A DNA stretch of 64,000 nt from a virus, in IMG/VR virus record IMGVR_UViG_3300045988_180880, positions 64,001 to 128,000 of that record. One strand, 5' to 3'. The notes beneath the pieces were generated by a model, which was given only the letters and a program-made list of their open reading frames with translations, searched no databases and had not been told where the DNA came from. The position numbers and the translations under genes were made by a program. Below are positions 1 through 59,080 of the stretch, piece by piece. Numbering within the stretch: position 1 is the first letter of the stretch; the number at the start of each line of letters is the position of its first letter.

Positions 1-354
1 ACAAAGGAGCTTCCCTTATATTACACCCCTTTTCGCTACCGCTAGGGGTGTCTAAGGAAGAAACTTTGAATAGATATATAGAAAATAAACCCAGAAAATG
101 AAGATGTTATAAAGATTTTATATTATTGATTTTCGCCTCTCCAAGGAGGCGAATCTAATCTAAATATTACAACTTTTTTTTAGGATAACATATTCTTTCA
201 TTATTTGTATTTTTACTCCAATCTAAGTTGTTATTTTGCTCTTCTAATAACTTTAAACTCTAATTAATGAAAAAGGGAGACTCCTATGTCTTCATTTTTA
301 TGTAACTGGATTCTGTATTGAATTAAAAAATAACAATTAAAATATTAAATATTT
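1..354 (+). promoter_or_regulatory. Conserved structured leader, copy 1, upstream of helicase-like paralog 1
   Basis: Shares order and sequence blocks with 52863-53232. Blocks include TTGAATA-N-TATATAG, the hairpin TTCGCCTC..GAGGCGAA and TTTTATGTAACTGGATTCTGTATT. Locally GC-rich hairpins ACACCCCT..AGGGGTGT. Confidence 0.5.
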
Positions 355-2397
355 ATGATCAATAAATTACCTGATATCATAGTACCTAGAGGTATTAGAT
401 ATATTTCAGAAATGGATAGTTTATTTAGATTTTATAAACTACCTGTAAAGTGTATAATTAATAAACAATTACCTGGATGTGGATTTACAGAATATTGTTT
501 AAGAGGACCTGAAAATGTAATACTTTGTTCTCCTAGAAAGATGTTACTTAAAAATAAAAAGGATCAACATGGTAGAGACGTTTATTTAGTTATAAACGAG
601 TTGGAAAAAGAAGTACCAATTGATAAAGATCTTTCTAAAATTGATAAATCTATTAATAGAGGAGATCAATTTATGGAGAAATTAGATGAGATGGTTAATG
701 GGAAAAATACTGTCTATAACCGATTAATGAATGAAATTAAAGATTACCTAAATGAGAGAAAATACTTAGGAGATAAACCGTGTAAAATTCTAGTTACTTA
801 CGATTCATATAGAATAGTAAAAGATATATTAACATCTTTAGGTATATTTCAAAGTTTTTACACTATAATAGATGAATTTCAAACTATCTTACATGATGCT
901 AAATTTAAATCAGATACTGAATTAGATTTCTTATATCACTTACATCAATCCCATTCAGCTCTATTTGTTAGTGCAACTCCAATGTTAGAGGAATATTTAA
1001 ACATGCTGGATGAATTTGATGGTTTACCTTATATAGATATGAATTGGGGGAAAGAGGACCCATCTAGAATTCTTAAACCTGCTTTAAAAGTGTTATCTAT
1101 GATGAGTGTAGGAACTAAATTACCAGAAATTATTCAATCCTATAAATCTGGTAACTTTGAAAGTGCTATAAGGATGATTAACGGTTATCCTACTAAAATA
1201 ATTAGCGATGAAGCTGTATTTTATGTAAACTCTGTTAATCATATAGTCAGTATTATAAAGAAATGTGATCTTCAATCAGAGGAGGTTAATATATTATGTA
1301 GTAATACACCAGATAATCTCAAAAAAATTCAAAAAAGATTAGGGAAGAAATTTGTGATAGGAGAGGTACCATTGAAAGGGGTTAAACCTAAGATGTTTAC
1401 ATTTTGTACTAGGACAGTTTACCTAGGGGCAGACTTTTATAGTTTATGCGCTAGATCGTTTATCTTTAGTGATAGTAATATAGACTCTTTAGCTGTTGAT
1501 ATTTCTGAAGATTTACCTCAAATTCTGGGAAGGCAAAGATTGTTTGAAAATCCATGGAAAAACGAAGCTACTTTTTATTATAGATCTACCTGTGATTATA
1601 GAAAGGTTAGTCAGGAGGAGTTTAATAAGGAAATAGAAAGAAAAAAGAAAGCTACTAGTGACTTATTATCTGCATTTAGTACAGCTTTAGATGATGTTAA
1701 GTATAATTTAGCTAAGAAGTATCAAAGTGATGTAAAAAGTAATAATTATAAGAATGATTATATAGCTGTAAACGAACATCAGGGTGGAACTTTAGTACCT
1801 GCTCTTAATAATTTAGTATTGGTTAACGAGATTAGAGCTTTTAAGATACAGCAAATAGATTATAAAGATAGATTTACTGTATTCTCAACAGTTCATAATA
1901 CTTTATCTCCGGATGATATAGTTAATAGAAAGATATCAGATTTTTTAAAGGAATATCAAGAATTAGGTACTTTTAAAGCCAAACTTAAACTTCTTTGTGA
2001 ATATAGTTTTAATGATCAAATTATAGGAGTAGTATTAGATCAGATTGGAGAACATGATAATATTAAGTCTTACTATTTAGCACTCGGACCTCAAAAACTC
2101 AGAGCTTTAGGATATGATAAATATAAGATTGAGAAAGAACTTGGAGTAGTAACATTTAGTCAAGAACTTTTAGTTAATACTATTTATTCAGAATTTAAAG
2201 TTGGAGATAAATTGACATTAGCTAATATAAAATCTAGACTAGAGTATCTTTATCCATCAATTTCCTATACAGCTACTCCTAAGGCAAAAGATTTAGAAAA
2301 TTATTTTGAAGTTAAATTGATATATGTTACAATTTTAGATGAAACTACAGGAAAGAAGAAACAAACAAAGGGTTATGAATTATTAAAAAGAAAATAA
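355..2397 (+). CDS. SF2 helicase-like protein, paralog 1
   Basis: Has DEFQ (DExx box), FVSATP (motif III) and QILGRQR (motif VI). Motif I reads PGCGFTE, so it lacks the Walker-A lysine. Paralogous to 53233-55260 over its full length. Confidence 0.6.
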   Translation: MINKLPDIIVPRGIRYISEMDSLFRFYKLPVKCIINKQLPGCGFTEYCLRGPENVILCSPRKMLLKNKKDQHGRDVYLVINELEKEVPIDKDLSKIDKSINRGDQFMEKLDEMVNGKNTVYNRLMNEIKDYLNERKYLGDKPCKILVTYDSYRIVKDILTSLGIFQSFYTIIDEFQTILHDAKFKSDTELDFLYHLHQSHSALFVSATPMLEEYLNMLDEFDGLPYIDMNWGKEDPSRILKPALKVLSMMSVGTKLPEIIQSYKSGNFESAIRMINGYPTKIISDEAVFYVNSVNHIVSIIKKCDLQSEEVNILCSNTPDNLKKIQKRLGKKFVIGEVPLKGVKPKMFTFCTRTVYLGADFYSLCARSFIFSDSNIDSLAVDISEDLPQILGRQRLFENPWKNEATFYYRSTCDYRKVSQEEFNKEIERKKKATSDLLSAFSTALDDVKYNLAKKYQSDVKSNNYKNDYIAVNEHQGGTLVPALNNLVLVNEIRAFKIQQIDYKDRFTVFSTVHNTLSPDDIVNRKISDFLKEYQELGTFKAKLKLLCEYSFNDQIIGVVLDQIGEHDNIKSYYLALGPQKLRALGYDKYKIEKELGVVTFSQELLVNTIYSEFKVGDKLTLANIKSRLEYLYPSISYTATPKAKDLENYFEVKLIYVTILDETTGKKKQTKGYELLKRK

Positions 2398-4818: not shown

Positions 4819-4976
4819 AATGGTTTCCTAATTGGTACGTTAGGTGTGAATCCTAGAATATATAATGTGAATTATGTATTAAATTTTGTGTATTGCTGGG
4901 AGGATCTAAATATCTAATCAGCAGTTGAAGATAATTTATTTATACGAATTTATAATAATTAAAATACTAGAATATT

Positions 4977-22860: not shown

Positions 22861-22867
22861 TAAATAG

Positions 22868-22941
22868 TGGGCCCAGCCAGGCTTGAACTGACGACCTTCT
22901 GATTATGAGTCAGCTTCTCTAACCAACTGAGATATGGGCCC
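22868..22941 (-). tRNA. tRNA with CAU anticodon (Met, or Ile if lysidine-modified)
   Basis: Reverse complement GGGCCCATATCTCAGTTGGTTAGAGAAGCTGACTCATAATCAGAAGGTCGTCAGTTCAAGCCTGGCTGGGCCCA folds as a cloverleaf. The TPsiC arm is GGTCGTCAGTTCAAGCC. Confidence 0.9.
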
Positions 22942-22959
22942 TGTTATAATTATGTCTAG

Positions 22960-23050
22960 TATCGGGAGGGGAGCTCGAATCCCCACGGGTCTTATTTTTC
23001 TGCCCAAAACATTTTAAGTGTTTCTTGTCTACCTATTCCAACATCCCGAC
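22960..23050 (-). tRNA. tRNA-Leu (UAA) with long variable arm
   Basis: Reverse complement GTCGGGATGTTGGAATAGGTAGACA..CTTAAAA..GGGGATTCGAGCTCCCCTCCCGATA. Anticodon loop CTTAAAA. Extended variable arm. Confidence 0.85.
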
Positions 23051-29820: not shown

Positions 29821-30310
29821 TTTCTATCTCTACTTCTAATGGAAATAATCTCTTAATTTCAAACAGTTTTAAATATTTATCATTATATTGATCCATAAAA
29901 TCTTTCACTTCTTTATAATGATCAAATACCCAATTTCCATTAAGACTATTTAATACCTTTGATTTATCTTCAAGTTGAAATAGGTAAGTTTCAATAGTAA
30001 TATCATTTCCTGAACCGTGATAGGATTTAGGAGTACTACTTATCCTTTCAATATCAAATATATCTCCCCAAATTGGATCTCTCCAATCTATATCGAGTAC
30101 GTAAAATATTAATTCTCGAAGAAAAGATAATTCGAATAATTTATTAAATGAGTTTCCTGATCCTTTCCATTCATACTTAAAAGAGTTAACTTTATCTTCC
30201 AAGCCCCAAGATTTTATTAAGTCTAAGAGTTCAAGATAAAGTCTATTCCATTCTTCTTTTGGTTTTTCTACAATTATTGCTTCTTGTTTAAATTCCAATA
30301 GACTTTTCAT
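29813..30310 (-). CDS. Hypothetical protein
   Basis: ORF. Confidence 0.5.
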   Translation of the reverse strand: MKSLLEFKQEAIIVEKPKEEWNRLYLELLDLIKSWGLEDKVNSFKYEWKGSGNSFNKLFELSFLRELIFYVLDIDWRDPIWGDIFDIERISSTPKSYHGSGNDITIETYLFQLEDKSKVLNSLNGNWVFDHYKEVKDFMDQYNDKYLKLFEIKRLFPLEVEIENV

Positions 30311-31811
30311 AATAACTTCTTAAGATTGTATAACTTGCTTTCCAAACTAAATCTAAATTTCTCACTTGTAAATCTGTTTTAAGGTAAGATCTTAATTGAT
30401 TATAGTAACTATTAGGATCATTTCTTTCAACACTTCCCAACAATTGATCTATATTAATCCCAGTACTTTCCCACTTAAATCGATCTATAACAAGTAATTT
30501 ATTAAGATCTAGTTGTTGTTTAATATTACTAAGAGATCCTATATAATTATTCATTCGATCTAGTCTTTCAGTACACATAGGATTTCCACATTTCAAAAGA
30601 CTTCCATAAACATCTTTTTCTGACAAATTATAACCACAGCTACAAGTTGGCCACATAAAATCTCCATTACCTTCAGTAAAAGAATCCCCTACCATTGGAA
30701 TAGTTGAATTAGCCATAATAATACTTACTATTGCTCCAGGGGTAATTTTCTTTTTTACCATTTTTCCCACACTTCCAGCACTTGGTTTTCTTACTGTACA
30801 TCCTTTTACTTGAATTGGATCGATTAGAATATTAGCTGACCAAGAATCTTTTCCTTTAGCTACTTGAGAATTCCATTGTATACCTCTTACTGTAGTTTTT
30901 AAAGCTTCAGTTCCTGATCCAGCACCAGCAAATTTTAAGGCGCCGAGACATATTCCAAATTCATCATATACTACCCAACCATCATTTAAGAAGTAACCAG
31001 TTGAAGTAACTGTTTTATCTGTTTCTGTATATTCTTTATTTCCGGCGCTCATAAGTTCTTCTATAGTCCATACATCGGCAGGGGAAAATAAGATATGTCC
31101 ATCAGTTTTTGAACATACAGTTTCAAACATTTTTAAAACTTCACGATAGTCTGTTTTTCTTAGTATTTGTCCTTCTATTGAATCATCAGTATAATATCTA
31201 TAAGCTCTAAGAGTTAATAAATTATTTACCTCAGATTCACAATACTTAGAATTTATTAGTCCATTGGCTCTTTGTCTAGCAGTTTCAGGATCAGTATCAG
31301 AAAGTCGATTAATGTCAACTAATGCCTCTGCCTGAATTGCTACTATACCTTTCGGAAATCTTTTTGGAAGGAAGTTTATTAATTTCCAAGTTTGATCTAC
31401 CCCATAGTTATCCAAATTTAAATTTCCGACTGTAACTATTCTTTTTGGAATACCAGTTGAAGAATCTAAATAAATTGCTATACTAGATCCATCATACTTT
31501 AGATCACAGTATTTTCCAGAGTTTTCATTCATAAACTCTGAAAGAGCACTTAACATAGTTTTTTCTTCAACTTTTTTCTTTTTAATTTTTTCTATATAAG
31601 AATTTTTTGTCTTAGTTCCTTTTAAGTATGTTTGATAAACATAATCTCTGACAAAAAATCCATCTTCTTGCGCTGCTCTAGCTTCTAACATATCATATAC
31701 AGCATCATCCATTCCGGTAGGTACTGAATCAATATAATAGTTTTTACATGCAAGAATAAGGTCTTTCCATTTTTCTAATGATTTTTCTGTAATATTATTT
31801 GTAACGCACAT
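30288..31811 (-). CDS. ligA: NAD-dependent DNA ligase-like protein
   Basis: N-terminal YYIDSVPTGMDDAVYDML (LigA Ia-like). Adenylation motif CDLKYDGSS (KxDG). Cys4 cluster CSCG..CGNPMC. Confidence 0.7.
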   Translation of the reverse strand: MCVTNNITEKSLEKWKDLILACKNYYIDSVPTGMDDAVYDMLEARAAQEDGFFVRDYVYQTYLKGTKTKNSYIEKIKKKKVEEKTMLSALSEFMNENSGKYCDLKYDGSSIAIYLDSSTGIPKRIVTVGNLNLDNYGVDQTWKLINFLPKRFPKGIVAIQAEALVDINRLSDTDPETARQRANGLINSKYCESEVNNLLTLRAYRYYTDDSIEGQILRKTDYREVLKMFETVCSKTDGHILFSPADVWTIEELMSAGNKEYTETDKTVTSTGYFLNDGWVVYDEFGICLGALKFAGAGSGTEALKTTVRGIQWNSQVAKGKDSWSANILIDPIQVKGCTVRKPSAGSVGKMVKKKITPGAIVSIIMANSTIPMVGDSFTEGNGDFMWPTCSCGYNLSEKDVYGSLLKCGNPMCTERLDRMNNYIGSLSNIKQQLDLNKLLVIDRFKWESTGINIDQLLGSVERNDPNSYYNQLRSYLKTDLQVRNLDLVWKASYTILRSYYEKSIGI

Positions 31812-32821: not shown

Positions 32822-34441
32822 TTAACCTTCTACTTTAGTTTCGGAAATATTATCATCAATGATTGTACAATCAATTAAGAGAATCATTGACGCTGCTGAA
32901 ATAGAATTTTCAAGAGCTACTCGAAGAGATTTAGAACTATCTAAGATCCCCTCCTCAAGTAAATTACCATACTTTCGAGTCTTAGCATTATATCCAATTC
33001 CTGGTTTAGATGATTTAACCTTTTCTAGAACTACTTCTCCAGAAACTCCTGAATTGTCTGCAATTGTTTTAAGAATTACTGGAAGACTTGAGAATACAAT
33101 TTCTGCACCCTCTACTTCATCTCCAACTAAAGATTTCCAGAATGTCTTATCTTTCTTCACTTCTAATGATCCTTTGTAATAGATATAACCACTTCCTAAA
33201 GAACATCCTTCAGCAATAGCACTTTTAGATGCTAGAATAGAATCTTCAATAGTTTGTTTAAGGTTCTGTTTTTCAGTTTCAGAAGCTCCTCCAGCTCTCA
33301 CTACTGCAATACCTCCACTAAGATTTGCTACTCGTTTCGCAAATTTAGTTTTATCATAATCTGATATTCCAGGATCTGTAAGTTTGGTGCTAAGAATTTC
33401 TACCCTTTCAGCAATCTCTTTAGAATCACCACCACCTTCATAGATAATACATGAATCTCTAGAAATTACAACTTTCTTAGCTACTCCAAGATCCTCTTTT
33501 GTTGCTTGTGTGACTGATAATCCGTTCTCAGGAGAAATATATTTACCGCCAGTTAAAATTGAAATATCTGCCATAATATTTTTCCTTGAATCTCCGAAAT
33601 CAATACCTTTTACAACACAACATCTAATTGCACCTTGAAGAGTATTCATAACAAGAGTTGTATTTACTACTTCATCAATATCATCTACTATAAATAAGAA
33701 TGGGCGTCCAGTAGGTACAAGCTGTTCCATTAACGGAAGAATTTGCTGTACACTAGATAATCTTTCTCCTACTACAATTACATAAGGATCTTCCATTACA
33801 CAAGTTCCATCAGTAGGATTTGTAACATACTGTGGAGAAGCCCAACCACGATCGAGTTTCATTCCAGTAGTTACATCAATAGTAGTTTCAAGACCACTAG
33901 AAAAATCAGCTGTAATAATACCAAGCATTCCAACTTTCTCCATACATTCAACTACCAGATTTCCAATGGCCGGATCATTATTGGCTGAAATAGTTGCCAC
34001 TTTTCTGATCTTTTCCATATCATCATTTACTGGAATTGAATTATTTTTGATATACTCAGCCATCCATTTTCCGGCCTTAAGCATACCAGATTTCACCTCA
34101 TTTACATTAGCTCCAGTTCGTAATGCTTTTTGTCCTTTTTCACACATTTCTTTGATTAATAGTGAAGTTGAACTTGTACCGTCACCTGCTAATCTTTCTG
34201 TTTGAGCGGCAGCATTTTTTACAAAGATAGCTCCTGTATTCTGAAGTTGATTCTTAAATGAAATCGACTTAGCAACAGTAGCTCCATCTCTTGACACCTC
34301 TGGACCTGTAAATCCTGAAATACATACGGCTTTACCTGACGGGCCGAGTGTTTTCTTAATTGCCTCTACTGATTTTTTTACACCTTCAATAATTTCGGCC
34401 TGAGTTTCAAAGCCGTGATTAATAATTTTTCCTTCTGACAT
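32822..34441 (-). CDS. groEL: Chaperonin GroEL (Cpn60) homologue
   Basis: TLGPSGK, DGATVAKSI, AGDGTSST, VVRAGGASE. About 539 aa. Confidence 0.9.
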   Translation of the reverse strand: MSEGKIINHGFETQAEIIEGVKKSVEAIKKTLGPSGKAVCISGFTGPEVSRDGATVAKSISFKNQLQNTGAIFVKNAAAQTERLAGDGTSSTSLLIKEMCEKGQKALRTGANVNEVKSGMLKAGKWMAEYIKNNSIPVNDDMEKIRKVATISANNDPAIGNLVVECMEKVGMLGIITADFSSGLETTIDVTTGMKLDRGWASPQYVTNPTDGTCVMEDPYVIVVGERLSSVQQILPLMEQLVPTGRPFLFIVDDIDEVVNTTLVMNTLQGAIRCCVVKGIDFGDSRKNIMADISILTGGKYISPENGLSVTQATKEDLGVAKKVVISRDSCIIYEGGGDSKEIAERVEILSTKLTDPGISDYDKTKFAKRVANLSGGIAVVRAGGASETEKQNLKQTIEDSILASKSAIAEGCSLGSGYIYYKGSLEVKKDKTFWKSLVGDEVEGAEIVFSSLPVILKTIADNSGVSGEVVLEKVKSSKPGIGYNAKTRKYGNLLEEGILDSSKSLRVALENSISAASMILLIDCTIIDDNISETKVEG

Positions 34442-34902: not shown

Positions 34903-36384
34903 TTATTTTTGCTCTTGTTGTTTGTAATATTCTTCAAGTTTATCAGGATATTTTTCTTTAAAGTCTGAAAATTTAAACCAATATGAATTATTATATAAGG
35001 ATTCAGTATTTAATTTTTTATCTTTATTTAAGATTCTCCATACATTCTGGTGAAATAACCCATCTTCTCTAACATTTCCAATACTTTTATATATTTTTAT
35101 AATCTCATGATTCCGATTAGTTCTTATTATTTCATTTCTAAATAACTTAACAACTAACTTTGGTAAATTATTTGTTTCTTTATTAAGATAGTATTCATCT
35201 AATTTATCTGGATATTCCCATTCATCTAGGCTAGTCCAATAATAATCAAAGTATTTACCTATAGCAGAATAAGATGTCCTTGTTTTATTACGATTTACTG
35301 CAGCAGATACTGAAGATTCAGAAAATCCATCTTTTATAACATCTTTTACTGAATCATAGATTTTATATATTAAATAGTCTTTATCATGACAAATAATCTT
35401 TTTACTTCTCTTAGTTTCTCTAGGAATATATTTTATTATATTAGAAATTGCTCCTTTTTCATAAAATTTTTGAATACTATTCGAATATAAATTAATAGCA
35501 TCGTTGTAATACATCCAGTAATATTCTCCATATAATGTTTTATTCTCTATACTCCTTCTAAGATACTCTGGATTAAATCCATCTATTTTAATAGAGGATA
35601 TTGTATTATATATTTTACAAACATTGAAGTTTTTATCAAAACATACTATCTTTGTTCCGGAATCATTATATTCTAATACAGTATTTCTTTCTAAAGGTGT
35701 TAAATTTAATTTTGGTAGATCTTTTAATGAATAAAATTCATTTAATTTTTCTGGATAATTAATTTTAAAATCTTCTAATAAAGAAAATTTATATCCTCTA
35801 GAAGTATTGTAATCTCCTTTTACAGTACTACTAACAGAAGTGTGATTAAAACCATCCATTTCAGTTTCTGAAATACTACTATATACTCTATAAACTTTAT
35901 TATTTAAATCATGACAAACAACAGGATATGAGATAGAACGTATATATTTTTCTCTTAACTCAGCAGAAAGGGTAATATTATATTTCTCTATTACTAATTT
36001 TCGCTCGGATGTATATACTGAATTTACATTAATCATACAAAATAGAGCAGATAATATTTTATTATTATCTGATTGAATTCTATATAATAAAACGTGTGCT
36101 ATTATATGTTCTAAAGCAGAAAGAAGTACGTAATTATAGTTCTCATCTTCACCTGACATACACCTAGGTAAAATATGATGTTTCTCTGTATAAAATTCGA
36201 TTTTTCCTCGTTTTAATCCTCTCTGAAGGGCTTGATCTATTAATTTACAGTAATCTTCTAGATATTCCTCTTCAGTTCTCCCATCTAGAATCATCTCATT
36301 AAAATCTTTTTCATCTAGGTAACTACTATACTTCATCCCTGGATTTTCGATAGATTTTATACCTTCTATTGGTTTAGATTTCAT
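34903..36384 (-). CDS. Free-standing HNH homing endonuclease with four C-terminal repeats
   Basis: TEKHHILPRCMSGEDENYN..H. Four ~60-aa repeats (I.CHD.....YKIY.S....DGF). Confidence 0.75.
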   Translation of the reverse strand: MKSKPIEGIKSIENPGMKYSSYLDEKDFNEMILDGRTEEEYLEDYCKLIDQALQRGLKRGKIEFYTEKHHILPRCMSGEDENYNYVLLSALEHIIAHVLLYRIQSDNNKILSALFCMINVNSVYTSERKLVIEKYNITLSAELREKYIRSISYPVVCHDLNNKVYRVYSSISETEMDGFNHTSVSSTVKGDYNTSRGYKFSLLEDFKINYPEKLNEFYSLKDLPKLNLTPLERNTVLEYNDSGTKIVCFDKNFNVCKIYNTISSIKIDGFNPEYLRRSIENKTLYGEYYWMYYNDAINLYSNSIQKFYEKGAISNIIKYIPRETKRSKKIICHDKDYLIYKIYDSVKDVIKDGFSESSVSAAVNRNKTRTSYSAIGKYFDYYWTSLDEWEYPDKLDEYYLNKETNNLPKLVVKLFRNEIIRTNRNHEIIKIYKSIGNVREDGLFHQNVWRILNKDKKLNTESLYNNSYWFKFSDFKEKYPDKLEEYYKQQEQK

Positions 36385-47835: not shown

Positions 47836-48882
47836 ATGGATCCTTTATTTGGAATGATTTTTTATTTTAGTATAGCTATAACAATTAGCTTTATTTGTAG
47901 TGTTCTTGAAGCAACATTATTAAGCACACCGACTTCATTTATTCAGTCTAAAATCGATTCTGGTTCTAAGGCAGCAATAAAATTTATGAAGCTGAAGAAT
48001 GAAAGGGTAGATGATGCTATTTCTGCTATTCTAACACTAAATACTGCTGCTCATGCAGTAGGTACGAGTTTAGCTAGTATAGAGGCAGTTGAGATTTTTG
48101 GGATGAAAAATTTTGCAATTATTTCTGGAATAATGACTTTTTTGATATTAGTACTTAGTGAATTAATACCAAAATCACTCGGAGCACATTATTGGAAAAG
48201 AATGACCTCAATTACAGCTAATATATTAACTTGGATGATTTATATAACATATCCTATAGTTTGGATGTCAAGATATATAATGGCTATATTCTCACCAAAA
48301 ACAGAAGAAGCTACTATATCTCGAGAAGAAATATCTAGTATGGCAACAATCGGAGAGCGAGAGAAGATATTTACAGGAAGAGAAAGTAAAATAATTAAAA
48401 ATCTACTTGCTCTTGATAAATTAACTGTTGGAAATATAATGACTCCTAGAACTGTTGTAAAATCTTTTGATGCTAATACTTTTCTTAAGGATTTTCCAGA
48501 TGAATTTGAATTTTCTAGAATACCAATATGGGAAGATACTGAAGATAATATAGTCGGAATAGCATATAAGTCAGATATATATCAAAATTATGATGTTTAT
48601 CAACCAGGATTAACAATAAAACATACAGATTATGATTCTGATATTATATTTATTCCAGATTCATCTAGTGTTAATGTATTGTTCGAAAAATTTCTTAAAA
48701 CTAAACAACACTTAGCAATAGTAGTAGATGAGTATGGAACATTTGTTGGAGTAGCTAGTTTCGAAGATGTTATAGAAAATTTACTCGGAATAGAAATAGT
48801 AGATGAGACTGATACTGTAGAAGATTTACAAAAATTAGCAAAAGAAAAATGGGAAGAACGAAAAAGATCTATGAATGGTTAA
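47836..48882 (+). CDS. CNNM/CorC-type membrane protein (DUF21 plus CBS pair)
   Basis: N-terminal TM helices, LIPKSLG, GNIMTPRT, FSRIPIW, HLAIVVDEYGTFVGVASFEDVIENLLG.EIVDE. Confidence 0.7.
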   Translation: MDPLFGMIFYFSIAITISFICSVLEATLLSTPTSFIQSKIDSGSKAAIKFMKLKNERVDDAISAILTLNTAAHAVGTSLASIEAVEIFGMKNFAIISGIMTFLILVLSELIPKSLGAHYWKRMTSITANILTWMIYITYPIVWMSRYIMAIFSPKTEEATISREEISSMATIGEREKIFTGRESKIIKNLLALDKLTVGNIMTPRTVVKSFDANTFLKDFPDEFEFSRIPIWEDTEDNIVGIAYKSDIYQNYDVYQPGLTIKHTDYDSDIIFIPDSSSVNVLFEKFLKTKQHLAIVVDEYGTFVGVASFEDVIENLLGIEIVDETDTVEDLQKLAKEKWEERKRSMNG

Positions 48883-51827: not shown

Positions 51828-51889
51828 AATTATAGAATTACTAACAAAACTAGAGTGTGAAATTGATTTATTAATTAAATTATTAGGAT

Positions 51890-52816
51890 ATGAACAGAAA
51901 TAAAAAAGCGTTAGTTATCTTTCATAGGGTAGATTTTGATGGAACATCCAGTATGTGTATAGCAGTAAAATCACTATACGATGAAGGGTACCAAGTAGAT
52001 AAAACCGGATATAATTATGGAGATGAAATTCCAGAAATGTATGTAGATAAGAATGGAAGACCCTATGACCTGATCTGTATGGTTGATATAAGTTTCCCTC
52101 CTGAAATTATGTTACAGGTTTGGGAACACTATGGAGATAACTTTATATTCATAGATCATCATGTATCATCCATCGAAAGTTCTATACAAAATAACTACAC
52201 CGGAATTAAAGGTATTCGTGAGATTGGACCAGCTGCTTGTGAATTAACTTGGAGATTTTTCTGTCCAGGTCAAGATATTCCAGAATTTATTCGACTTCTT
52301 GGAGTATATGATACTTGGAGAAAAGATGAAGTTGGAGAGGATGATTGGCAAGATGTAATACTTCCTTTACAGAGTGGTTTGAAATTTAAATATGGCTTAA
52401 ATCCTGATACGTGGCTCTATGAATTTCCTAATCTATGTTTCTGGGAAGATAGATTGACAGAAGTAATAGAACTTGGAACTATTCTTAAACAAAATCAGGA
52501 TAAAATTAATAAAGGAGTAGTTAAATCATTCTCATTTCCCGTTACTGTTGCTGGAAAATATAGAGGAGTTTGTGTAATAGGAACTGCATTTTCAAGTACA
52601 GTCTTTAATTCTGTCTTAAATGATTATGATATTTATATAGTATGTAATCGAAGAGATAAAGGAGTATATAGTATATCAATGTATAAAGAACCTGATCGAA
52701 TTCCAGAATTTAGTTGTGCTGGATATAGAGGCATTATTTTTGGACATAAAAGTGCTGGAGGTGGTACTTTAAACTTTGAACAATTCAAGACTTTAATAGA
52801 GGATTGTGAAATTTAA
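51890..52816 (+). CDS. DHH/DHHA1 family phosphoesterase (NrnA-like)
   Basis: HRVDFDG, MVD, FIDHH (DHH), and C-terminal GHKSAGGG (GGGH-type DHHA1 motif). Confidence 0.7.
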   Translation: MNRNKKALVIFHRVDFDGTSSMCIAVKSLYDEGYQVDKTGYNYGDEIPEMYVDKNGRPYDLICMVDISFPPEIMLQVWEHYGDNFIFIDHHVSSIESSIQNNYTGIKGIREIGPAACELTWRFFCPGQDIPEFIRLLGVYDTWRKDEVGEDDWQDVILPLQSGLKFKYGLNPDTWLYEFPNLCFWEDRLTEVIELGTILKQNQDKINKGVVKSFSFPVTVAGKYRGVCVIGTAFSSTVFNSVLNDYDIYIVCNRRDKGVYSISMYKEPDRIPEFSCAGYRGIIFGHKSAGGGTLNFEQFKTLIEDCEI

Positions 52817-52824
52817 AACTTATA

Positions 52825-52860
52825 AGAACCAAGGATTTTATTTCCTTGGTTTCTTTTTTC
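52825..52860 (+). terminator. Rho-independent terminator
   Basis: AAGAACCAAGGA..TCCTTGGTTTCTT followed by TTTTC. Confidence 0.7.
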
Positions 52861-52862
52861 TT

Positions 52863-53232
52863 GATACATTTTTATGAGGACTAAGGAACCCTTTATCATA
52901 CCTTCCGTTCACCACTAAAGGGTTCACTCCAGGGCCCTACGGGCTCTAGATTGAATAAACTATATAGGGAATAAATAGATTATAAGAATTCGATCTCCTC
53001 CCAAAGGGAGATCGAATATATTAAGTGGAACTTTTTTAATCGAAAATAGATTTACTTTATATATGGTCAAATATGTCCTATTTAAATGACAATTTTGCGC
53101 TTCTACTAACTTTAAATCCTTACAATTGAATGAAGATTATAAAGGGTATCCCTAGTCTTCGATTTTATGTAACTGGATTCTGTATTAAAAAGAATCTATA
53201 AATAATAAATTAATTAAAAACTTTATAAAATT
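52863..53232 (+). promoter_or_regulatory. Conserved structured leader, copy 2
   Basis: Same block order as 1-354. Hairpins GAACCCTTT..AAAGGGTTC and TTCGATCTCC..GGAGATCGAA. Identical TTTTATGTAACTGGATTCTGTATT. Confidence 0.5.
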
Positions 53233-55260
53233 ATGACTAAAGATAAAATTATTGTACCTAGAGGAATTAGGTATATAGGAGAGTGGAAAGATTTCTGCTT
53301 TTCTAATTTTCTAAGTAAATGTATTATTAATAAACAATTACCTGGATGTGGTTTTACTGAATACTGTATTAATGGTCCTGAGAATGTAATACTTTGTTCT
53401 CCTAGAAAAATGCTTTTAAAGAATAAATATGATCAACATAAAAATGATATTTATTTAGTAATTAATGAGATGGATAAAGATCCAGATGTGGATAAGGATA
53501 TTAGTAAGGATATTAAAAATCCTAATTTAGATGAAGATTATCAAGAAAAGAAAGATAATTCTGAGATCTATGAAAGATTATATAGAGAAATTGATACTTA
53601 TACCTATCAAAGATATCTAAATAATCAACCAGCTAAGATTCTAGTAACATATGATTCATATAGAATCGTTAAAGATATTCTTGAAAAAATTAGAATATTT
53701 GATAGGTTTATGACTATAGTAGATGAGTTTCAGAGTATTTTACACGATTCTAGATTTAAAAGCAATACTGAAATGGGATTTTTGGAATATCTTAAACAAT
53801 CCCCAACAGCATACTTTGTATCAGCTACTCCTATGATGGATGAATATCTAGAAATGTTAGATGAATTTAAGGATCTCCCATATTATGAATTAGATTGGTA
53901 TAGTTCAGATTCTAGTAGAGTAATCAAACCTTCATTAAAAGTACTTACAATGAAATCAGTAGGTACAAAAGCAGAAGAAGTAATTCAATCCTATCTATCA
54001 GGAGATTTTGAAGAAGTTGTTGTTCTTAGAGATAGTGTACCTACTAGAGTAATATCAGACGAAGCAGTATTTTATGTAAACAGTGTTAATCATATTATAT
54101 CTATCATCAAGAAAAATGAATTAACTCCAGAACAATGTAATATATTATGTAGCAATACTCCAGAAAATCTAAAGAGAATACAAAAGAAATTAGGAAAAGG
54201 TTTTACTATAGGAGAAGTACCTCTTAAAGGAGTTAAACCTAGGATGTTTACCTTTTGTACTAGAACGGTTTACTTAGGAGCAGATTTTTATAGTTTATGT
54301 GCACGTAGTTTTATATTCTCAGATTCTAATTCAGACTGTTTAGCAGTTGATATTGCAGAAGATCTTCCACAGATACTAGGTAGACAAAGGTTGTTTAGTA
54401 ATCCTTGGAACAATTCAGCAACTTTTTATTATCGTACTACAGCAGATTATAGAGAAATGAAAGAGTCTGATTTTCAGAAAATTTTAAATAAGAAAACAGA
54501 AACTACAGAAAACTTATTATCAGTATATAATAAAGGAACTGATGAAGAAAGATATGATTTAGCGAAAAATTATTTATATGTAGCTAAGTCAGCAAGTTAT
54601 AAAGATAATTATGTAGCAGTAAATAAAATAATTACCAGTACAGGTAATATTATTTTAAAACCTGTTATTAATCAGCTTGTAAAAGTTAATGAGATTCGAG
54701 CATTTAAAATTCAGCAAATTGATTATAAAGATAGATTTAGTGTATTTAGTAGTGTACACTCTAAACTTACTCCTGATGATATAGTAAATAGGGATGTAAC
54801 TAGATTTTTCTGTATTTATGATACTTATACTACAATTCATGATAAACTTAAAATGTTATGTGAATATCCTGTTTCTAGAGAAGTGATAGATATAGTTCTT
54901 GGACAAATAGCAGATTCTGATGAAGTTAAGTCTTATTATCTGTCATTAGGTCCTACTAAACTTAAAGCGTTATCATACAATTCTCATAAAATAAAGAAAG
55001 AGCTTGGAATAGTAACATTTAGTCCAGAATTACTTAATAATACAATTCATCAAAACTTTAATCCAGGAGAGAAATATACACTATCTAATCTTAAAGCAAA
55101 ACTAGGAGATTTATATTCTAGTATTTCTTATACTGCAGTGCCAAAAGCTAATGATATTTTAAATTACTTTGAGGTAAAAGAATATAAATCTACTGAGGTT
55201 GTAGATGGGGAAAAGAAAAGAGTAAGAGGATATGAACTATTAAAAAGAAAGGATAATTAA
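53233..55260 (+). CDS. SF2 helicase-like protein, paralog 2
   Basis: Same motifs as 355-2397: PGCGFTE, DEFQ, SATP, QILGRQR. Confidence 0.6.
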   Translation: MTKDKIIVPRGIRYIGEWKDFCFSNFLSKCIINKQLPGCGFTEYCINGPENVILCSPRKMLLKNKYDQHKNDIYLVINEMDKDPDVDKDISKDIKNPNLDEDYQEKKDNSEIYERLYREIDTYTYQRYLNNQPAKILVTYDSYRIVKDILEKIRIFDRFMTIVDEFQSILHDSRFKSNTEMGFLEYLKQSPTAYFVSATPMMDEYLEMLDEFKDLPYYELDWYSSDSSRVIKPSLKVLTMKSVGTKAEEVIQSYLSGDFEEVVVLRDSVPTRVISDEAVFYVNSVNHIISIIKKNELTPEQCNILCSNTPENLKRIQKKLGKGFTIGEVPLKGVKPRMFTFCTRTVYLGADFYSLCARSFIFSDSNSDCLAVDIAEDLPQILGRQRLFSNPWNNSATFYYRTTADYREMKESDFQKILNKKTETTENLLSVYNKGTDEERYDLAKNYLYVAKSASYKDNYVAVNKIITSTGNIILKPVINQLVKVNEIRAFKIQQIDYKDRFSVFSSVHSKLTPDDIVNRDVTRFFCIYDTYTTIHDKLKMLCEYPVSREVIDIVLGQIADSDEVKSYYLSLGPTKLKALSYNSHKIKKELGIVTFSPELLNNTIHQNFNPGEKYTLSNLKAKLGDLYSSISYTAVPKANDILNYFEVKEYKSTEVVDGEKKRVRGYELLKRKDN

Positions 55261-55262
55261 TT

Positions 55263-56294
55263 ATGATATATTTGATTAAGAGTGCAGGTTATGATGAGAA
55301 TGAAAATTTAATTCATCTTCTCAAAATAGGTTATACAGAGGATAATAATAGAGATAGAAGATTTATGTCTTACAAACTTCATAATCCTACTTGTAAAATT
55401 TTATATGAAATTCCCAGTCTTTCAGAAGATATAGAAAAGAGAATTCAATATAAGTTTAGAGATTATAAGTATAAAGAATATGGAAATGAGTGGTTTTATT
55501 ATAATGATGATGTAATAAATTTCTTTAGGGATATAGATAAAGTAGATTTGGAATCTCTTCCAAAGTCTCCTATGAGTGAAAAGAGGGATTATAAGAGATT
55601 TAGAAAAATGGTTAAAGAATTTGTTCCTTGGATTATTGCTGATATAAAGGATAGAAATGAATATGTAAAGAAGATAATAGATGAATTAGGTAGTAATTTA
55701 AATTCTATTCAGGATATATTAGATTATGTGATAAAGGATTACGGAGAGGATTCTATCTCTAAGTATCTTGAAGTTACTAAGAAAAAAGAGATGAAAGTGT
55801 ATAGTGAAGATTCAAAGATTAATAGTGAAATAATAAAGTTTATTAATACTTATGAAACTCTTACTACTATCTATGATAAACTTAAAATGTTATGTGAATA
55901 TCCAGTCTCTAAGGAAGTTATTCAGATAGTATTAGATCAAATAGCAGATAGTGATGAGATTAAGTCTTATTATTTGCTTTTAGGTCCTGATAGGTTGAAA
56001 AAATTACATTATAATATTACAAATATTAGAAGAGAATTAGGTATTGTAACCTTTAGTCCTGAATTATTAAATAATACTATTCATCAAAATTTTAATCCAG
56101 GTGAGAAGTATACATTAGCTAATTTAAAGGCTAAACTTGGAGATCTATACTCTTCTATTTCTTATACTGCAGTTCCTAAGGCCAATGATATTTTAGAGTA
56201 TTTCGAAGTAAAAGAGGTTCAAAATACTATGTTAGTAGATGGAGTAAAGAAGCGAATTCGTAGTTATGAATTATTAAAAAGAAAGGATAATTAA
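55263..56294 (+). CDS. T5orf172-like domain fused to the C-terminal domain of the helicase-like paralogs
   Basis: N-terminal IYLIKSAG....LLKIGYTED..R. The last ~150 aa are near-identical to the C-terminus of 53233-55260. Confidence 0.6.
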   Translation: MIYLIKSAGYDENENLIHLLKIGYTEDNNRDRRFMSYKLHNPTCKILYEIPSLSEDIEKRIQYKFRDYKYKEYGNEWFYYNDDVINFFRDIDKVDLESLPKSPMSEKRDYKRFRKMVKEFVPWIIADIKDRNEYVKKIIDELGSNLNSIQDILDYVIKDYGEDSISKYLEVTKKKEMKVYSEDSKINSEIIKFINTYETLTTIYDKLKMLCEYPVSKEVIQIVLDQIADSDEIKSYYLLLGPDRLKKLHYNITNIRRELGIVTFSPELLNNTIHQNFNPGEKYTLANLKAKLGDLYSSISYTAVPKANDILEYFEVKEVQNTMLVDGVKKRIRSYELLKRKDN

Positions 56295-56296
56295 TT

Positions 56297-56767
56297 ATGA
56301 AGTTAGGTAAATTAATTTCTAAAGCAATATCTTGTATAGATTCTTATATTAATCCACCAACAGAAAAAGAATTAAAAGATAAGCATAAGACTGAGTTTTA
56401 TGTCTATATATCCCAATTTCCTGGATTTATGGCAATGAATATATTAGATGAAATTGAGGAACTCGAAATGGATATTTTATCAGAGGATTATTATAATATA
56501 AGAGCTGGAAAAACGTGGAAGGTTCTTATATTATATCAAGGAACTTCAGATTGTTTGGGAAATATAAATAAAGTTCTAAAAGAAGATTTGGAATATTTTA
56601 GGAAACGAGTGATAAAATTAAATGAAACGTACTTAAATGGGGAAGTTTCAAGTATGGAAAATTATGATAGAAAAATACTTAGATGGTGTTTTCAATCAGA
56701 AGATCCAGAATTTAGTAGTAAATTTTTTAAATATTTAAATAAGTTGTTAAATGGTAATAAAACGTAA
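56297..56767 (+). CDS. Hypothetical protein
   Basis: ORF. Confidence 0.5.
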   Translation: MKLGKLISKAISCIDSYINPPTEKELKDKHKTEFYVYISQFPGFMAMNILDEIEELEMDILSEDYYNIRAGKTWKVLILYQGTSDCLGNINKVLKEDLEYFRKRVIKLNETYLNGEVSSMENYDRKILRWCFQSEDPEFSSKFFKYLNKLLNGNKT

Positions 56768-57254
56768 ATTATTCTCTAAAGAAGTAGAGAGAAAGAAATC
56801 TGATAAAGGATGGGATGCTGCTTTAGGAGCTGGTATTGGTGCTACAGCTGGAGTTGCTGGTAAAATGAAGCTTGAGAAGATTAATTCAATTAAGAAATTA
56901 AAAAATGCTACTAATGCTAGAATAAATAAAGTTCATGACTATCGAACTGAGAAAGTAGAAACAGAGATGCAAAGGAGAATTAATGCTTCTGTTGATCCTT
57001 TTGAAAAATCTGTAATAGATGAGGTTAGAAGAGGTAAACATGATATAATTAATAATAGCCGTAAAAATATGATAGAAACAGTTGGAAAGAAGAAACGAAA
57101 GCTAAAAATTGCGACAGCTGCTATCCCAATTGCTGGAGCTATTATTGGTGCAGTTTATGGTCGTGATAATAATCTCAAGAAACAAAGAGATAAAATAGAA
57201 GATGCTGCAGGAGATAGAGTTGCAGATATTGTTAGAGGAAAGAAAGAAAAATAA
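56751..57254 (+). CDS. Hypothetical protein with glycine-zipper segments
   Basis: GAGIGATAGVAG and AIPIAGAIIGAVYG. Confidence 0.45.
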   Translation: MVIKRKLFSKEVERKKSDKGWDAALGAGIGATAGVAGKMKLEKINSIKKLKNATNARINKVHDYRTEKVETEMQRRINASVDPFEKSVIDEVRRGKHDIINNSRKNMIETVGKKKRKLKIATAAIPIAGAIIGAVYGRDNNLKKQRDKIEDAAGDRVADIVRGKKEK

Positions 57255-57273
57255 ATATAAAAATTAAATTATT

Positions 57274-57831
57274 ATGTCAACAAGAAGTACTATTTCAGTT
57301 AAGATACCTACTGAAATGATTGGAAAGGTATACGAGAACATTCATGGACATCAAGTTTATCTAGGAGGAGAGTATATGGTTATTTACTGTCACTTTGACG
57401 GTTATTTAGATGGTGTTGGAGAGATTTTGCAGTGTTATTATGATTCATTTGAGAAAGCTTTTGAGTTAATTCTAGGTGGTGATATCAGTTCCATCGCAGA
57501 GTCTCTTGAGGGTTGTGACTATTATGTTCGAAGAGGTGAGAGTTGGGAGAATAGCAAACCAGCTTTTTCAGATAAACCACCTAAGAGAGTTGAAGAGTAT
57601 TTATATATCTTCGAATCAGGAAAGTGGTATGTTTATAATGGGTATAATTGTAATGGACCGCTGGAGGATTATCTCAGCCCGGAAATCTCTTCAAAAGATG
57701 ACATGATTTCGTTACCTAAGAATTTTTGTTATTATTTACATGGTTATTTATCTGGGCTGTCATCTACCCAGCGAGAAGATAAAGGACTTGATTCTATAAT
57801 TAAAACATTGGAGGGTTATTTAGATGTTTAG
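57274..57831 (+). CDS. Hypothetical protein
   Basis: ORF. Confidence 0.5.
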   Translation: MSTRSTISVKIPTEMIGKVYENIHGHQVYLGGEYMVIYCHFDGYLDGVGEILQCYYDSFEKAFELILGGDISSIAESLEGCDYYVRRGESWENSKPAFSDKPPKRVEEYLYIFESGKWYVYNGYNCNGPLEDYLSPEISSKDDMISLPKNFCYYLHGYLSGLSSTQREDKGLDSIIKTLEGYLDV

Positions 57832-58201
57832 AGTAATTATTTGTGGTTCTAGAGAATTTGATGATTACGATCTTCTTAAGGAGAAGTGTGATCTTATTTT
57901 ATCAAGAAAAGCAGCAGACCCAACGGAAAAGATTGTGATTGTTAGTGGATGTGCTAGAGGTGCTGATAGACTTGGAGAAAAATATGCTGAAGAAAAAGGT
58001 TATGAAGTTTTGCGTTATCCAGCTGATTGGGATAGATATGGAAAAAGTGCTGGGTATAGGAGAAATAAACAAATGGCAGAAGTGGCTAATGCATGTATAG
58101 CTTTCTTTAGTTCGGTTGCAGAGAATAAAGGAACTAAGAATATGGTATCTCTTGCAAGGAATATGAATCTTCTTGTAAGGGAGGTAAAAGAAGAGGATTA
58201 A
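57824..58201 (+). CDS. SLOG-superfamily / DUF2493-like protein
   Basis: VIICGSREF.D, VSGCARGADRLGE.YA, YPADWDRYGKSAGYRRNKQM. Confidence 0.6.
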   Translation: MFRVIICGSREFDDYDLLKEKCDLILSRKAADPTEKIVIVSGCARGADRLGEKYAEEKGYEVLRYPADWDRYGKSAGYRRNKQMAEVANACIAFFSSVAENKGTKNMVSLARNMNLLVREVKEED

Positions 58202-58229
58202 AAGCCTTATATATGTAATAAAAATAAAT

Positions 58230-58478
58230 GTGAGAAATAATATGAAAACAGTAAAAGTAATTGTAGGTACCTCTGTAATTATTGGAGGTATATATTTAAT
58301 ATATAAAGCAGTTAAGAAGACGAATAGTGTAATAGATGGTGTTTCAGAAGTAAAAAATAAGATGAACACTTTTATACAAGATCAAGCAATTAACTGGATG
58401 AAAGATATTAATAAGAACTTAGAAACAAAAATAAAGGAAAAAGAAGACAAGTTACTAAACGATAAAGAAAAGAATTAA
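58230..58478 (+). CDS. Small membrane protein
   Basis: TM segment VIVGTSVIIGGIYLIY. Probable start is the ATG at 58242, 24 nt after CCTTATATATGTAA. Confidence 0.5.
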   Translation: MRNNMKTVKVIVGTSVIIGGIYLIYKAVKKTNSVIDGVSEVKNKMNTFIQDQAINWMKDINKNLETKIKEKEDKLLNDKEKN

Positions 58479-58520
58479 CGGGTTCTTTTAAGTTTGTAAT
58501 ATTGTTGTACCCTATTTAGT

Positions 58521-58556
58521 CCATCGGTCTGTGAAGATAGATGGATTTTATTTTTC
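58521..58556 (+). terminator. Rho-independent terminator
   Basis: CCATCGGTCT..AGATAGATGG followed by ATTTTATTTTTC. Confidence 0.5.
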
Positions 58557-58574
58557 TTCCTTTTTGAGTCCTTT

Positions 58575-58644
58575 AAAGCCTTATTAATGTAGAGAAAGAA
58601 ACTCCTTAAGCTAACAATGAAATAGCTTAGGGAGATTTTTTATT
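58575..58644 (+). ncRNA. Candidate short transcript (promoter-like motif plus terminator)
   Basis: AAAGCCTTATTAATGTAG, then the hairpin CTCCTTAAGCT..AGCTTAGGGAG and ATTTTTTATT. No ORF between them. Confidence 0.3.
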
Positions 58645-58667
58645 AATAAACTTAAAAGAGAATAAAA

Positions 58668-59080
58668 ATGGAAACAGGAGAAATTACAAGACAAGCAAAA
58701 CAAAGCTTAACTATCTTTAAAAAAAACAACTTCATGAATGTCAGTGTAGAGAGAATCGATTAAAAGAATATTATGAAAAGAAGTGGCTGACAAAGAAAGA
58801 GTTTTTAAAGAAAATAAGAAAGCAGAGAAAGAAAAGAGCAGAATTTGCAGAAAAGTATCTCACTAAATATAATGAATTTAAGAATCTTGGAGAAAAGATG
58901 TCACTAGAGCAAGAAAATTATGCTAGGGATGCAGATATAATAGTAAGTAGTTGGTTTATAATAACTCACCAATCATTACCTAAATTATTTATCTTAGCTG
59001 GAATGGTATCTGTTATAATGAAGAAAATAACTAAAGATTTTTGGTTATTGAGTGAGAAGAAAAAAGAGAGGGAAATTTAA
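58668..59080 (+). CDS. Small membrane protein gene split by an A8 run (frameshift site or error)
   Basis: The frame starting at ATG 58668 stops at 58763. The -1 frame is open from 58721 to 59080. The frames overlap on T TTA AAA AAA at 58716-58726. Confidence 0.4.

Follow-up and report, generated by a model that had tools for sequence, protein, structure and literature searches.

A 64,000-nucleotide (nt) stretch of viral DNA, positions 64,001 to 128,000 of IMG/VR record IMGVR_UViG_3300045988_180880 and referred to here in its full length as the window, carries a helicase-like gene (paralog B) that is followed directly by a T5orf172 nuclease gene (called T). The C-terminus of T is a helicase tail, from an allele ('t') of the same gene, and runs on into the downstream flank of t; upstream of T stands a complete helicase of another allele, 'b'. 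Combined with the motif and fold comparisons presented below, this is read with fair, not high, confidence as a replication-type superfamily 2 (SF2) helicase that is rewired but active, accompanied by a mobile nuclease gene that captures helicase tails through recombination. The genes and modules concerned are the following (aa, amino acids; H, helix; S, strand):

53233..55260, + strand: helicase-like paralog B, allele 'b', 675 aa, predicted SF2 fold with a C-terminal helical and winged-helix-like domain
54775..55257, + strand: C-terminal domain of B, residues 515-675, a helical bundle at 517-594, then H-S-H-H-S-S at 598-672 (DSSP on models)
55263..56294, + strand: T5orf172 gene T, 343 aa
55263..55547, + strand: T5orf172 (GIY-YIG superfamily) nuclease module of T, residues 1-95, PF10544
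55548..55849, + strand: middle module of T, at least four interchangeable types across copies, no known domain
55850..56294, + strand: C-terminal domain of T, made up of the 3' end of helicase allele 't', which continues the reading frame of the nuclease
355..2397, + strand: helicase-like paralog A, 680 aa, motif I at 463-489, C-terminal domain at 1912-2394

Origin of the C-terminal tail of T

The open reading frames (ORFs) of B and T lie on the same strand with 2 nt between them, and paralog A has no T5orf172 gene downstream in the window genome. A preliminary description of this DNA had listed the ORFs and their helicase motifs, a C-terminus shared by helicase and nuclease, and a similarity of the underlying DNA, all of which are borne out: A and B read NKQLPGCGFTEY at motif I and keep DEFQ, SAT, and QILGRQR; B and T align at 77% identity over 158 aa (BLASTP, E 4e-82); and the segments 54813-55266 and 55847-56300 are 76.9% identical over 454 nt. 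The C-termini of A and T share 52-53% identity, and A and B are 62% identical over 677 aa, their full length. Similarities and motifs of this extent cannot, on the sequences compared, be chance.

The relatives L004, L006, and L007 represent the same genomic locus as B, with upstream sequence 96% identical to the window overall (100% over 51887-52986) and downstream sequence 99.5-100% identical. Between these flanks the two helicase alleles, b in the window and t in the relatives, share only 81% nt identity from ~52987 to the stop codon, the divergence beginning at a hairpin (52988-53017) and amounting to a synonymous divergence (dS) of ~0.7. Divergence of b and t in situ was rejected for this reason, as a dS of ~0.7 sits within flanks that are 99-100% identical, and on these comparisons b and t are old alleles swapping at one locus.

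Over ~400 nt the C-terminal coding sequence of T in the window matches the helicase tail of L004 (allele t) at every position (100% nt identity), against 77% identity to that of its upstream neighbour, so that a plain duplication of the neighbour's tail was also rejected. On its left the window is colinear with a b genome that lacks T (52000-55253, L015, 99.4%), and from the tail of T onward it is colinear with a t genome that lacks T (55850-59000, L007 6033-9185, 99.0%). The reciprocal arrangement occurs in L006: behind a helicase of allele t stands a T in which the distal 406 nt differ from the b-allele tail of L015 at a single position (99.8% identity). A further arrangement in L197 consists of a b helicase, a window-type T, and a second intact T; from the tail of the first T onward this contig is colinear with L004 (93.7%), and the tail of its second T is 99.6% identical to the helicase tail of a paralog, L092. 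The helicase allele that supplied the tail of T is not otherwise present in the window genome, and across contigs the t-type tail was found once per contig, on the helicase or on T, never on both.

The junctions follow the same pattern. Helicases without T end in ...YELLSRKEVC, stop, TT, and the ATG of the next gene, and helicases with T behind them end in ...YELLKRKDN, stop, TT, and the ATG of T, while the junction between T and the next gene in L004 and L006 is identical to the junction between a T-less helicase and its next gene. The change of the last 60-90 nt of the helicase with the presence (...KRKDN) or absence (...SRKEVC) of T is of the kind produced by co-conversion, and whole alleles are exchanged as well. 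In distant lineages, the tails of T are closest to the local helicase tails (59-80%), compared to 44-54% for the T tails of the window lineage.

T behaves as an optional, mobile, free-standing cassette resembling a homing endonuclease gene. Only ~590 nt of DNA are specific to it (55263-55849), and at the locus of B it is present in L001-L003 and absent from L015, L016, L017, and L024, with helicases that are 99.8% identical with or without it and flanks at 97-99%, a presence/absence polymorphism typical of homing genes. Immediately behind the helicase stop codon, paralog loci hold no T gene, one, or two, and the order of helicase then T is also found in lineages with helicases only 43-58% identical to B. 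Copies in decay, as in homing genes, include L004 (stop at codon 32) and L081 (frameshift at codon 82), and N-terminally truncated homologs of T, without the nuclease N-terminus, are carried on contigs of 366-382 kb. The T proteins are mosaics of three modules (nuclease, middle, and C-terminal domain) with discordant dS (e.g., 0.02, 0.24, and 1.15 in one pair), and the T of L048, composed of the N-terminus of the first T of L047 and the rest of the second, is a recombinant between tandem copies. Partial helicase fragments (residues ~390-510 plus the C-terminal domain) lie 3' of T5orf172 genes in L080 (6132-6992) and L081 (7118-7978) and may be remnants of overwritten resident helicases in which the truncation point lay further upstream.

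The assignment of the nuclease module is based on a match of PF10544 to residues 2-84 of T, which scores 27.7 bits (cut-off 20; E 3.9e-6); searched as a profile against the PDB, the T5orf172 domain returned no match. The ratio of nonsynonymous to synonymous divergence (dN/dS) of the module is 0.16-0.47. Six residues (Y3, Y24, R33, H40, E76, and N86) are invariant in 10 diverged copies of T (61-84% identical) and, judged by position, would supply the catalytic Tyr, Arg, Glu, and Asn of the GIY-YIG superfamily, an assignment in keeping with the Arg and Glu that are reported as catalytic in Odn, another T5orf172 nuclease (PMC8263062).

Motif I and fold of the helicase-like family

Relatives of B were sought among 1.84 billion representative proteins clustered at 50% identity, yielding 1,496 clusters at E<=1e-3 and 416 at E<=1e-30, and motif statistics were taken from an alignment of 128 diverse full-length representatives (32-62% identical to B). 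The motifs of B that are compared are the following, with conservation among the 128:

53332..53358, + strand: variant motif I, K34-Q-L-P-G-C-G-F41-T42, with F41 in the position of the Walker-A lysine
53722..53733, + strand: motif II (Walker B), D164-E-F-Q, D in 128/128 and E in 127/128
53821..53829, + strand: motif III, S197-A-T, S in 128/128, A in 126/128, and T in 125/128
54370..54390, + strand: motif VI, Q380-I-L-G-R-Q-R386, with Q, G, R384, and R386 in 128/128

B has the SF2 motifs II (DExx), III (SAT), and VI (QxxGRxxR), and motif V (G349-x-D351) is invariant or nearly so in the alignment. The departure is confined to motif I, where the SF2 form G-x-G-K-[ST] is replaced by G-C-G-[F/Y/A/M/L]-T in 125 of the 128 sequences, within a family consensus of [D/N]-K34-x-[I/L/V]-[T/P/C]-G38-C39-G40-[F/Y/A/M/L]41-T42. 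Lysine does not occur at position 41 in any of the representatives (F83/Y21/A10/M7/L2; K in 0/128). A lysine seven residues upstream of it, K34, is present in 126, with C39 and G40 in 125 and T42 in 124. Homologs from cultured phages also depart from the canonical form, with CKGITGCGATS in Edwardsiella phage ET-ABTNL-9 (alongside DEAH, TAT, and QIVGRLRR) and CKSVAGVGGTT in Psychrobacter phage D'Alembert, as do Bacteroidales homologs (NKTVTGCGGTS and NKRICGCGATE). In the AlphaFold model, K34 comes directly after strand beta-1 (29-33) and F41 opens the helix, at the canonical position of the P-loop. Alleles and paralogs are under purifying selection over the whole gene (omega 0.05-0.5).

The preliminary description had considered canonical ATP binding doubtful from the missing lysine. 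Across the family (~1,500 clusters), the replacement of this lysine by F, Y, A, M, or G is general and is accompanied by the invariant lysine at -7, by the remaining motifs, and by purifying selection, and the doubt does not carry over to the enzyme as such: because the other ATPase motifs and the lysine at -7 are invariant and selection is purifying, it is more likely that B has an active NTPase site with a relocated phosphate-binding lysine than that it is a pseudo-enzyme. A conserved lysine upstream in or before the P-loop is also a feature of the deviant Walker A motif of the ParA/MinD proteins, in which an additional upstream 'signature lysine' acts across the dimer and the canonical lysine is kept. 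The helicase-like family differs in that the canonical lysine is missing from all members examined.

Searches at the level of sequence placed the family nowhere with confidence. For the helicase-like proteins, PHROGs, NCBIfam, and PADLOC returned no match, and the one Pfam hit, to DEAD on paralog A, was weak (E 0.012), with none to the Herpes_ori_bp profile; when the PDB was searched by sequence, neither one protein by itself nor the family profile retrieved a helicase. Structure was more informative. An AlphaFold model of B built on 48 sequences (mean predicted local distance difference test [pLDDT] 83.4, predicted template modelling score 0.78) contains the two tandem RecA-like domains of SF2 and matched, in a Foldseek search of the PDB (probability 1.00), Brr2, BLM/RecQ/WRN, herpes simplex virus 1 (HSV-1) UL9, HrpB, and Hel308 with E of 2.6e-8 to 1e-5. 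The HSV-1 origin-binding protein (9hgi_B) scored E 2e-7, and other SF2 subfamilies had similar scores in the PDB. Among viral models in BFVD, the top match was a member of the family itself (E 5e-34), with the next best named matches being the 'replication origin-binding protein' of giant viruses and herpesviruses (E 1.3e-13 to 3e-8) and helicase-primases (to 1e-7). In Bacteroides, Phocaeicola, and Prevotella, the homolog is fused C-terminally to BT4734-like_N and PriCT-1 primase domains or adjoins the gene for such a primase. Given the fold matches and the link to primases, the helicase-like proteins are most likely replication-type SF2 motors of the origin-binding or helicase-primase type.

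The likeness to UL9-type proteins and viral helicase-primases consists of a pair of RecA-like SF2 domains with, behind them, a C-terminal domain that possibly gives site specificity, of the best named Foldseek matches, and of the primase fusion or neighbourhood in Bacteroidales relatives. The family differs from UL9-type proteins in having no sequence-level match (Pfam, PDB), no canonical motif I lysine, a C-terminal domain unrelated in sequence, and many copies per genome, and origin binding is here only putative. Iteron-like repeats sought near the genes were not found.

The C-terminal domain is more variable than the helicase core in most comparisons and had no match in Pfam (28 members searched) or in a profile search of the PDB. 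Modelled on its own (pLDDT 89.5) or within B, it begins with five or six helices and continues as H-S-H-H-S-S with a long beta-hairpin. The latter part has a winged-helix topology (helices 598-608, 617-630, and 639-644; strands 614-616, 646-657, and 660-672) at a pLDDT of ~85-92. On the strength of the models the shared domain is probably DNA-binding, and in the helicase it would position the motor on DNA. A profile search of a 5.8-billion-protein set, with 1,546 candidates and not exhaustive, revealed no third 'head' joined to this domain, only the two known architectures with fragments and truncations.

Gene copies, leader, and genome setting

Within a genome, the similarity between helicase-like paralogs is limited to the interval from 140-390 nt upstream of the ATG through the stop codon. 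Because it begins 5' of the ATG and stops at the stop codon, the repeated unit is leader plus ORF, ~2.3 kb. Among the 80 best of 379 relatives, from which paralog loci were taken, IMG/VR contigs of 317-375 kb had at least five or six copies each. Spacing was tested on a related contig of 376 kb, JAGAYY010000025.1 (L204-L214, L223), and not on the window's own lineage; its nine paralogs lie at intervals of 26-60 kb, far more evenly than under random placement (coefficient of variation 0.21, P ~3e-5). Taken together, the counts amount to at least 6-9 dispersed copies of the module in a phage genome of ~370 kb. This contig is deposited as a metagenome-assembled genome of a 'Bacilli bacterium' and another, CASEGV010000001.1, as 'Mycoplasmatota', and both are probably megaphages; for JAGAYY010000025.1 this is because its size and the gene content at the nine loci resemble IMG/VR viral contigs. 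The leaders in the window are the following:

52987..53232, + strand: leader of B, part of the replaceable allele cassette, with a 23-nt block TTTATGTAACTGGATTCTGTATT at 53164-53186
225..354, + strand: leader of A, homologous to the leader of B, with the 23-nt block again at 297-319

A leader of ~130 nt (window 225-354 and 53090-53232; L027-L106 ~3360-3500) is conserved 5' of nearly all paralogs, with a core of AACTG[GA]A[TC]TCTGTATT, and 39 of the 46 distinct paralog leaders contain the 23-nt block with <=4 mismatches. Local hairpins in which bases seem to have changed in a compensatory way were seen by eye (e.g., GATTCT...AGAATC vs GAACTC...GAGTTC), RNAalifold on 25 leaders returned no consensus structure, and Rfam had no match in the window, leader included, besides tRNA. 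A 16-nt leader pattern searched in IMG/VR is unsuited to counting paralogs, as the matches listed include contigs from unrelated samples. The possibility, put forward for testing in the preliminary description, that both proteins bind the conserved leader does not sit well with these data: the leader is a poor candidate target because its core is near-invariant across paralogs with C-terminal domains that are only 50-60% identical. It is more likely a shared promoter, operator, or 5' untranslated region element than the specific target of a variable C-terminal domain.

Proteins identical or near-identical to B sit on metagenomic contigs of 370-430 kb, viral according to IMG/VR and from human-gut samples, and by these matches the window (GC content 27-36%) is a piece of a human-gut megaphage of ~380 kb. 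A megablast search of the locus against GenBank phages gave no match and no close relative. On gene content, the window genome is heavily colonised by genes of the homing-endonuclease type, with at least four others (5579-6364, 16426-17544, 23178-24566, and 34903-36384), one of them with NUMOD3 and an I-TevI DNA-binding domain, two matching phrog_655 'homing endonuclease', and one a double HNH. HNH genes also occur beside distant members of the helicase-like family, directly downstream of the helicase-like gene in D'Alembert (L025 6839-7582) and, as HNH_3 genes, directly upstream in Bacteroides relatives (L219 1984-2760; L216 2080-2802). These HNH genes have no domain in common with the helicase, a point tested on the pair in D'Alembert. 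The gene neighbourhoods suggest that the helicase-like family is a recurrent landing site for homing-type genes.

The helicase-T5orf172 locus is flanked by a DHH-family phosphoesterase-like protein (51890-52816) and a YspA/SLOG-family protein (57824-58201; PF10686, E 4e-17), which could act on nucleotides or signalling molecules. The DNA just 3' of T is variable; two genes at 56297-57254 are missing in some relatives, and the varying region, covered by L191, L192, L195, L196, and L198, carries replacement genes in some relatives, including ones for TerD-domain proteins. Elsewhere the window encodes a GroEL-like chaperonin (32822-34441; phrog_5725, E 1e-119), a protein that matches NAD-dependent DNA ligase in part only (30288-31811), a partition-protein homolog (25596-26633), tRNA-Met and tRNA-Leu side by side (22867-23050), a virion-type repeat protein of 1,213 aa, and a protein with a TnsA-like endonuclease N-terminal domain (8146-9231; E 2.7e-9). 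A CNNM/CorC-type transmembrane protein with a CBS domain (47836-48882; Pfam E 2.8e-27 and 2.5e-12), possibly for divalent-cation transport, is an unusual auxiliary gene for a phage. Matches of the ORF at 3686-4831 to a zinc ribbon and to domain 2 of Rpb1 of RNA polymerase (E 0.009) are weak; this ORF may encode one piece of a multisubunit RNA polymerase that is split.

Mechanism, alternatives, and significance

The closest known analogue of T is Odn (Gp88) of phage ICP1, a T5orf172 nuclease with the origin-binding domain of a satellite's RepA, which cuts that origin (Barth, Nguyen & Seed 2021; PMC8263062). Both combine a T5orf172 nuclease akin to putative phage homing endonucleases with a DNA-binding domain (putative in T) copied from a replication initiator (a predicted one for T), the partner having been swapped over evolution (PMC8263062). 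The sharing of a domain between T5orf172 nuclease and helicase is observed directly for T, and the helicase's role as an initiator is a prediction. The borrowed domain of Odn is N-terminal, 42% identical to its source, and derived from RepA of a hostile satellite (PMC8263062), whereas that of T is C-terminal, up to 100% nt identical, and derived from the phage's own helicase-like alleles and paralogs; it stems from the same family at the same locus and not from a hostile element under attack. The capture by T is also recurrent, recent, and located at the insertion site of the nuclease gene itself. Nuclease activity and DNA binding were demonstrated for Odn and are predicted for T.

With the seg/mob genes of T4-like phages, free-standing homing endonucleases of the GIY-YIG/HNH kind, and with modular enzymes of the I-TevI type T has in common an optional gene between conserved genes, present or absent in near-identical genomes, along with co-conversion of adjacent DNA, degenerate copies, and an architecture of nuclease, linker, and DNA-binding module. 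It differs in that the putative DNA-binding module repeats the 3' end of the target gene family next to it instead of being a dedicated NUMOD or helix-turn-helix type, in that the cassette appears to travel with a whole replacement helicase allele, and in that the cleavage site of T is only putative. What is unusual in the pair is a Walker lysine probably relocated throughout a family and a nuclease gene that inherits the tails of helicase alleles through recombination; otherwise T and B would be kin of modular homing-type or chimeric T5orf172 nucleases and of SF2 replication helicases.

A mechanism that would produce these arrangements starts from a cassette composed of leader, helicase allele, the nuclease and middle modules of T, and the start of the C-terminal domain. 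The cassette would recombine into a resident helicase locus, probably after a nuclease cut, with the right-hand crossover falling inside the homologous sequence coding for the C-terminal domain. The resident helicase core would be overwritten and its tail left in frame as the new C-terminal domain of the nuclease, with the incoming allele supplying the helicase function. Repeated rounds would stack T genes, recombination between stacks would delete or shuffle them, and unused copies would decay. The shared domain would have two uses, as the homology arm in recombination and probably as the DNA-targeting module of T, since T offers no other candidate for DNA binding. The nuclease activity of T as the initiator of recombination (true homing) is a proposal. 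The preliminary description had seen in the shared domain a targeting or DNA-binding module recruited by two different enzymatic heads, of which the first part stands, as an SF2-like core and a T5orf172 nuclease both carry the domain and the role is reasonable from its topology. Recruitment in the sense of an ancient fusion does not, as recombination with the 3' ends of helicase genes has replaced the tail of the nuclease gene time and again (100% nt identity).

Several points weigh against the combination of a rewired, active replication helicase with a tail-capturing mobile nuclease. The case for a replication role consists of a similar fold and of fused genes in distant relatives (26-34% identity), and the ATPase, DNA-binding, and nuclease activities of all members are predicted ones. 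AlphaFold modelling of the C-terminal domain, proposed in the preliminary description as a check, gave a confident winged-helix-like topology and no significant structural match, the best Foldseek hit in the PDB having E 0.16 and the winged-helix matches to PadR and Pex only E 1.4-2.2 with template modelling scores <0.32. Ordinary homologous recombination or unequal crossing-over between strains could give the same mosaics without homing, and the low dN/dS in the C-terminus of T may partly reflect earlier selection on it as helicase sequence.

A rival account would make the C-terminal domain on T a homology arm or scar of unequal crossing-over without function at the protein level. Mosaic tracts that are 100% identical, deletion and duplication between tandem copies, and the automatic preservation of the reading frame by homologous recombination all agree with such a by-product, but every intact copy keeps a full-length, in-frame domain in lineages with nuclease identities of 28-100%, homing enzymes of the GIY-YIG type normally require a DNA-binding domain apart from the nuclease and T has no other, and the dN/dS of T is 0.1-0.55, which together leave this account improbable. 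A possible, though still unlikely, alternative is that T is a weapon in the manner of Odn, an anti-competitor nuclease that cuts the binding sites or origins of a rival strain during co-infection through the domain of the rival's initiator. The precedent of ICP1 Odn (PMC8263062), the initiator-like character of the helicase family, and the finding that the nuclease of b genomes carries the t domain and vice versa, with t-type sequence once per contig, speak for it; the same pattern, however, is expected mechanically from recombination at the locus, the decayed and truncated copies better fit the life cycle of a selfish element, and in distant lineages the domain is closest to that of the adjacent helicase, which would imply self-targeting. 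A weapon of this type is compatible with tail capture by a mobile nuclease, and the two are not mutually exclusive.

Two further accounts take one of the proteins to be catalytically silent. It is very unlikely that the helicases are dead scaffolds whose shared C-terminal domain sends scaffold and T5orf172 enzyme to one target, such as the leader. The absence of the canonical Walker-A lysine and the conserved leader upstream of all paralogs would suit scaffolds, but the other NTPase motifs and the alternative lysine are invariant across ~1,500 clusters where pseudo-enzymes usually lose several motifs, the leader core does not co-vary with C-terminal domains that are 50-60% identical, and the domain of T belongs to another allele and not to its neighbour. 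That T is a domesticated regulator, a non-cutting competitor or modulator of the helicase at its DNA sites, a role proposed for certain domesticated T5orf172 proteins, is highly improbable: while both proteins have the putative DNA-binding domain, and T starts 2 nt past the helicase stop on the same strand with no terminator evident between them, the residues mapped by position to the GIY-YIG Tyr, Arg, Glu, and Asn are invariant, and presence/absence polymorphism, stacking, and decay indicate mobility rather than fixed regulation.

The reading preferred here, a rewired SF2 helicase with a mobile nuclease that captures its tails, can be carried further, to a point where it becomes a long shot: the paralogs would be origin-specific initiators placed every ~40 kb on a megaphage of ~380 kb (a multi-origin replicon), the relocated Walker lysine would be functional, and T would be a self-retargeting gene drive. 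If this were true, each overwritten initiator allele would give T its DNA-recognition domain, and T would become specific for the remaining genomes, those in which the displaced allele or the sites cognate to it persist.

For the helicase-like proteins, the family would be a clean test case for the rewiring of a P-loop, as rules based on motifs would wrongly call these proteins inactive, and an SF2 motor family of ~1,500 clusters is missing from Pfam, NCBIfam, PHROGs, and PADLOC. That gut phages of ~370 kb hold an initiator-like gene in many regularly spaced copies bears directly on the replication of megaphages and on the organisation of very large genomes. T appears to have been caught in the act of domain capture, which would extend the single known example, ICP1 Odn, to a recurrent process and would constitute a recombination-driven route by which modular nucleases acquire new DNA-binding domains.

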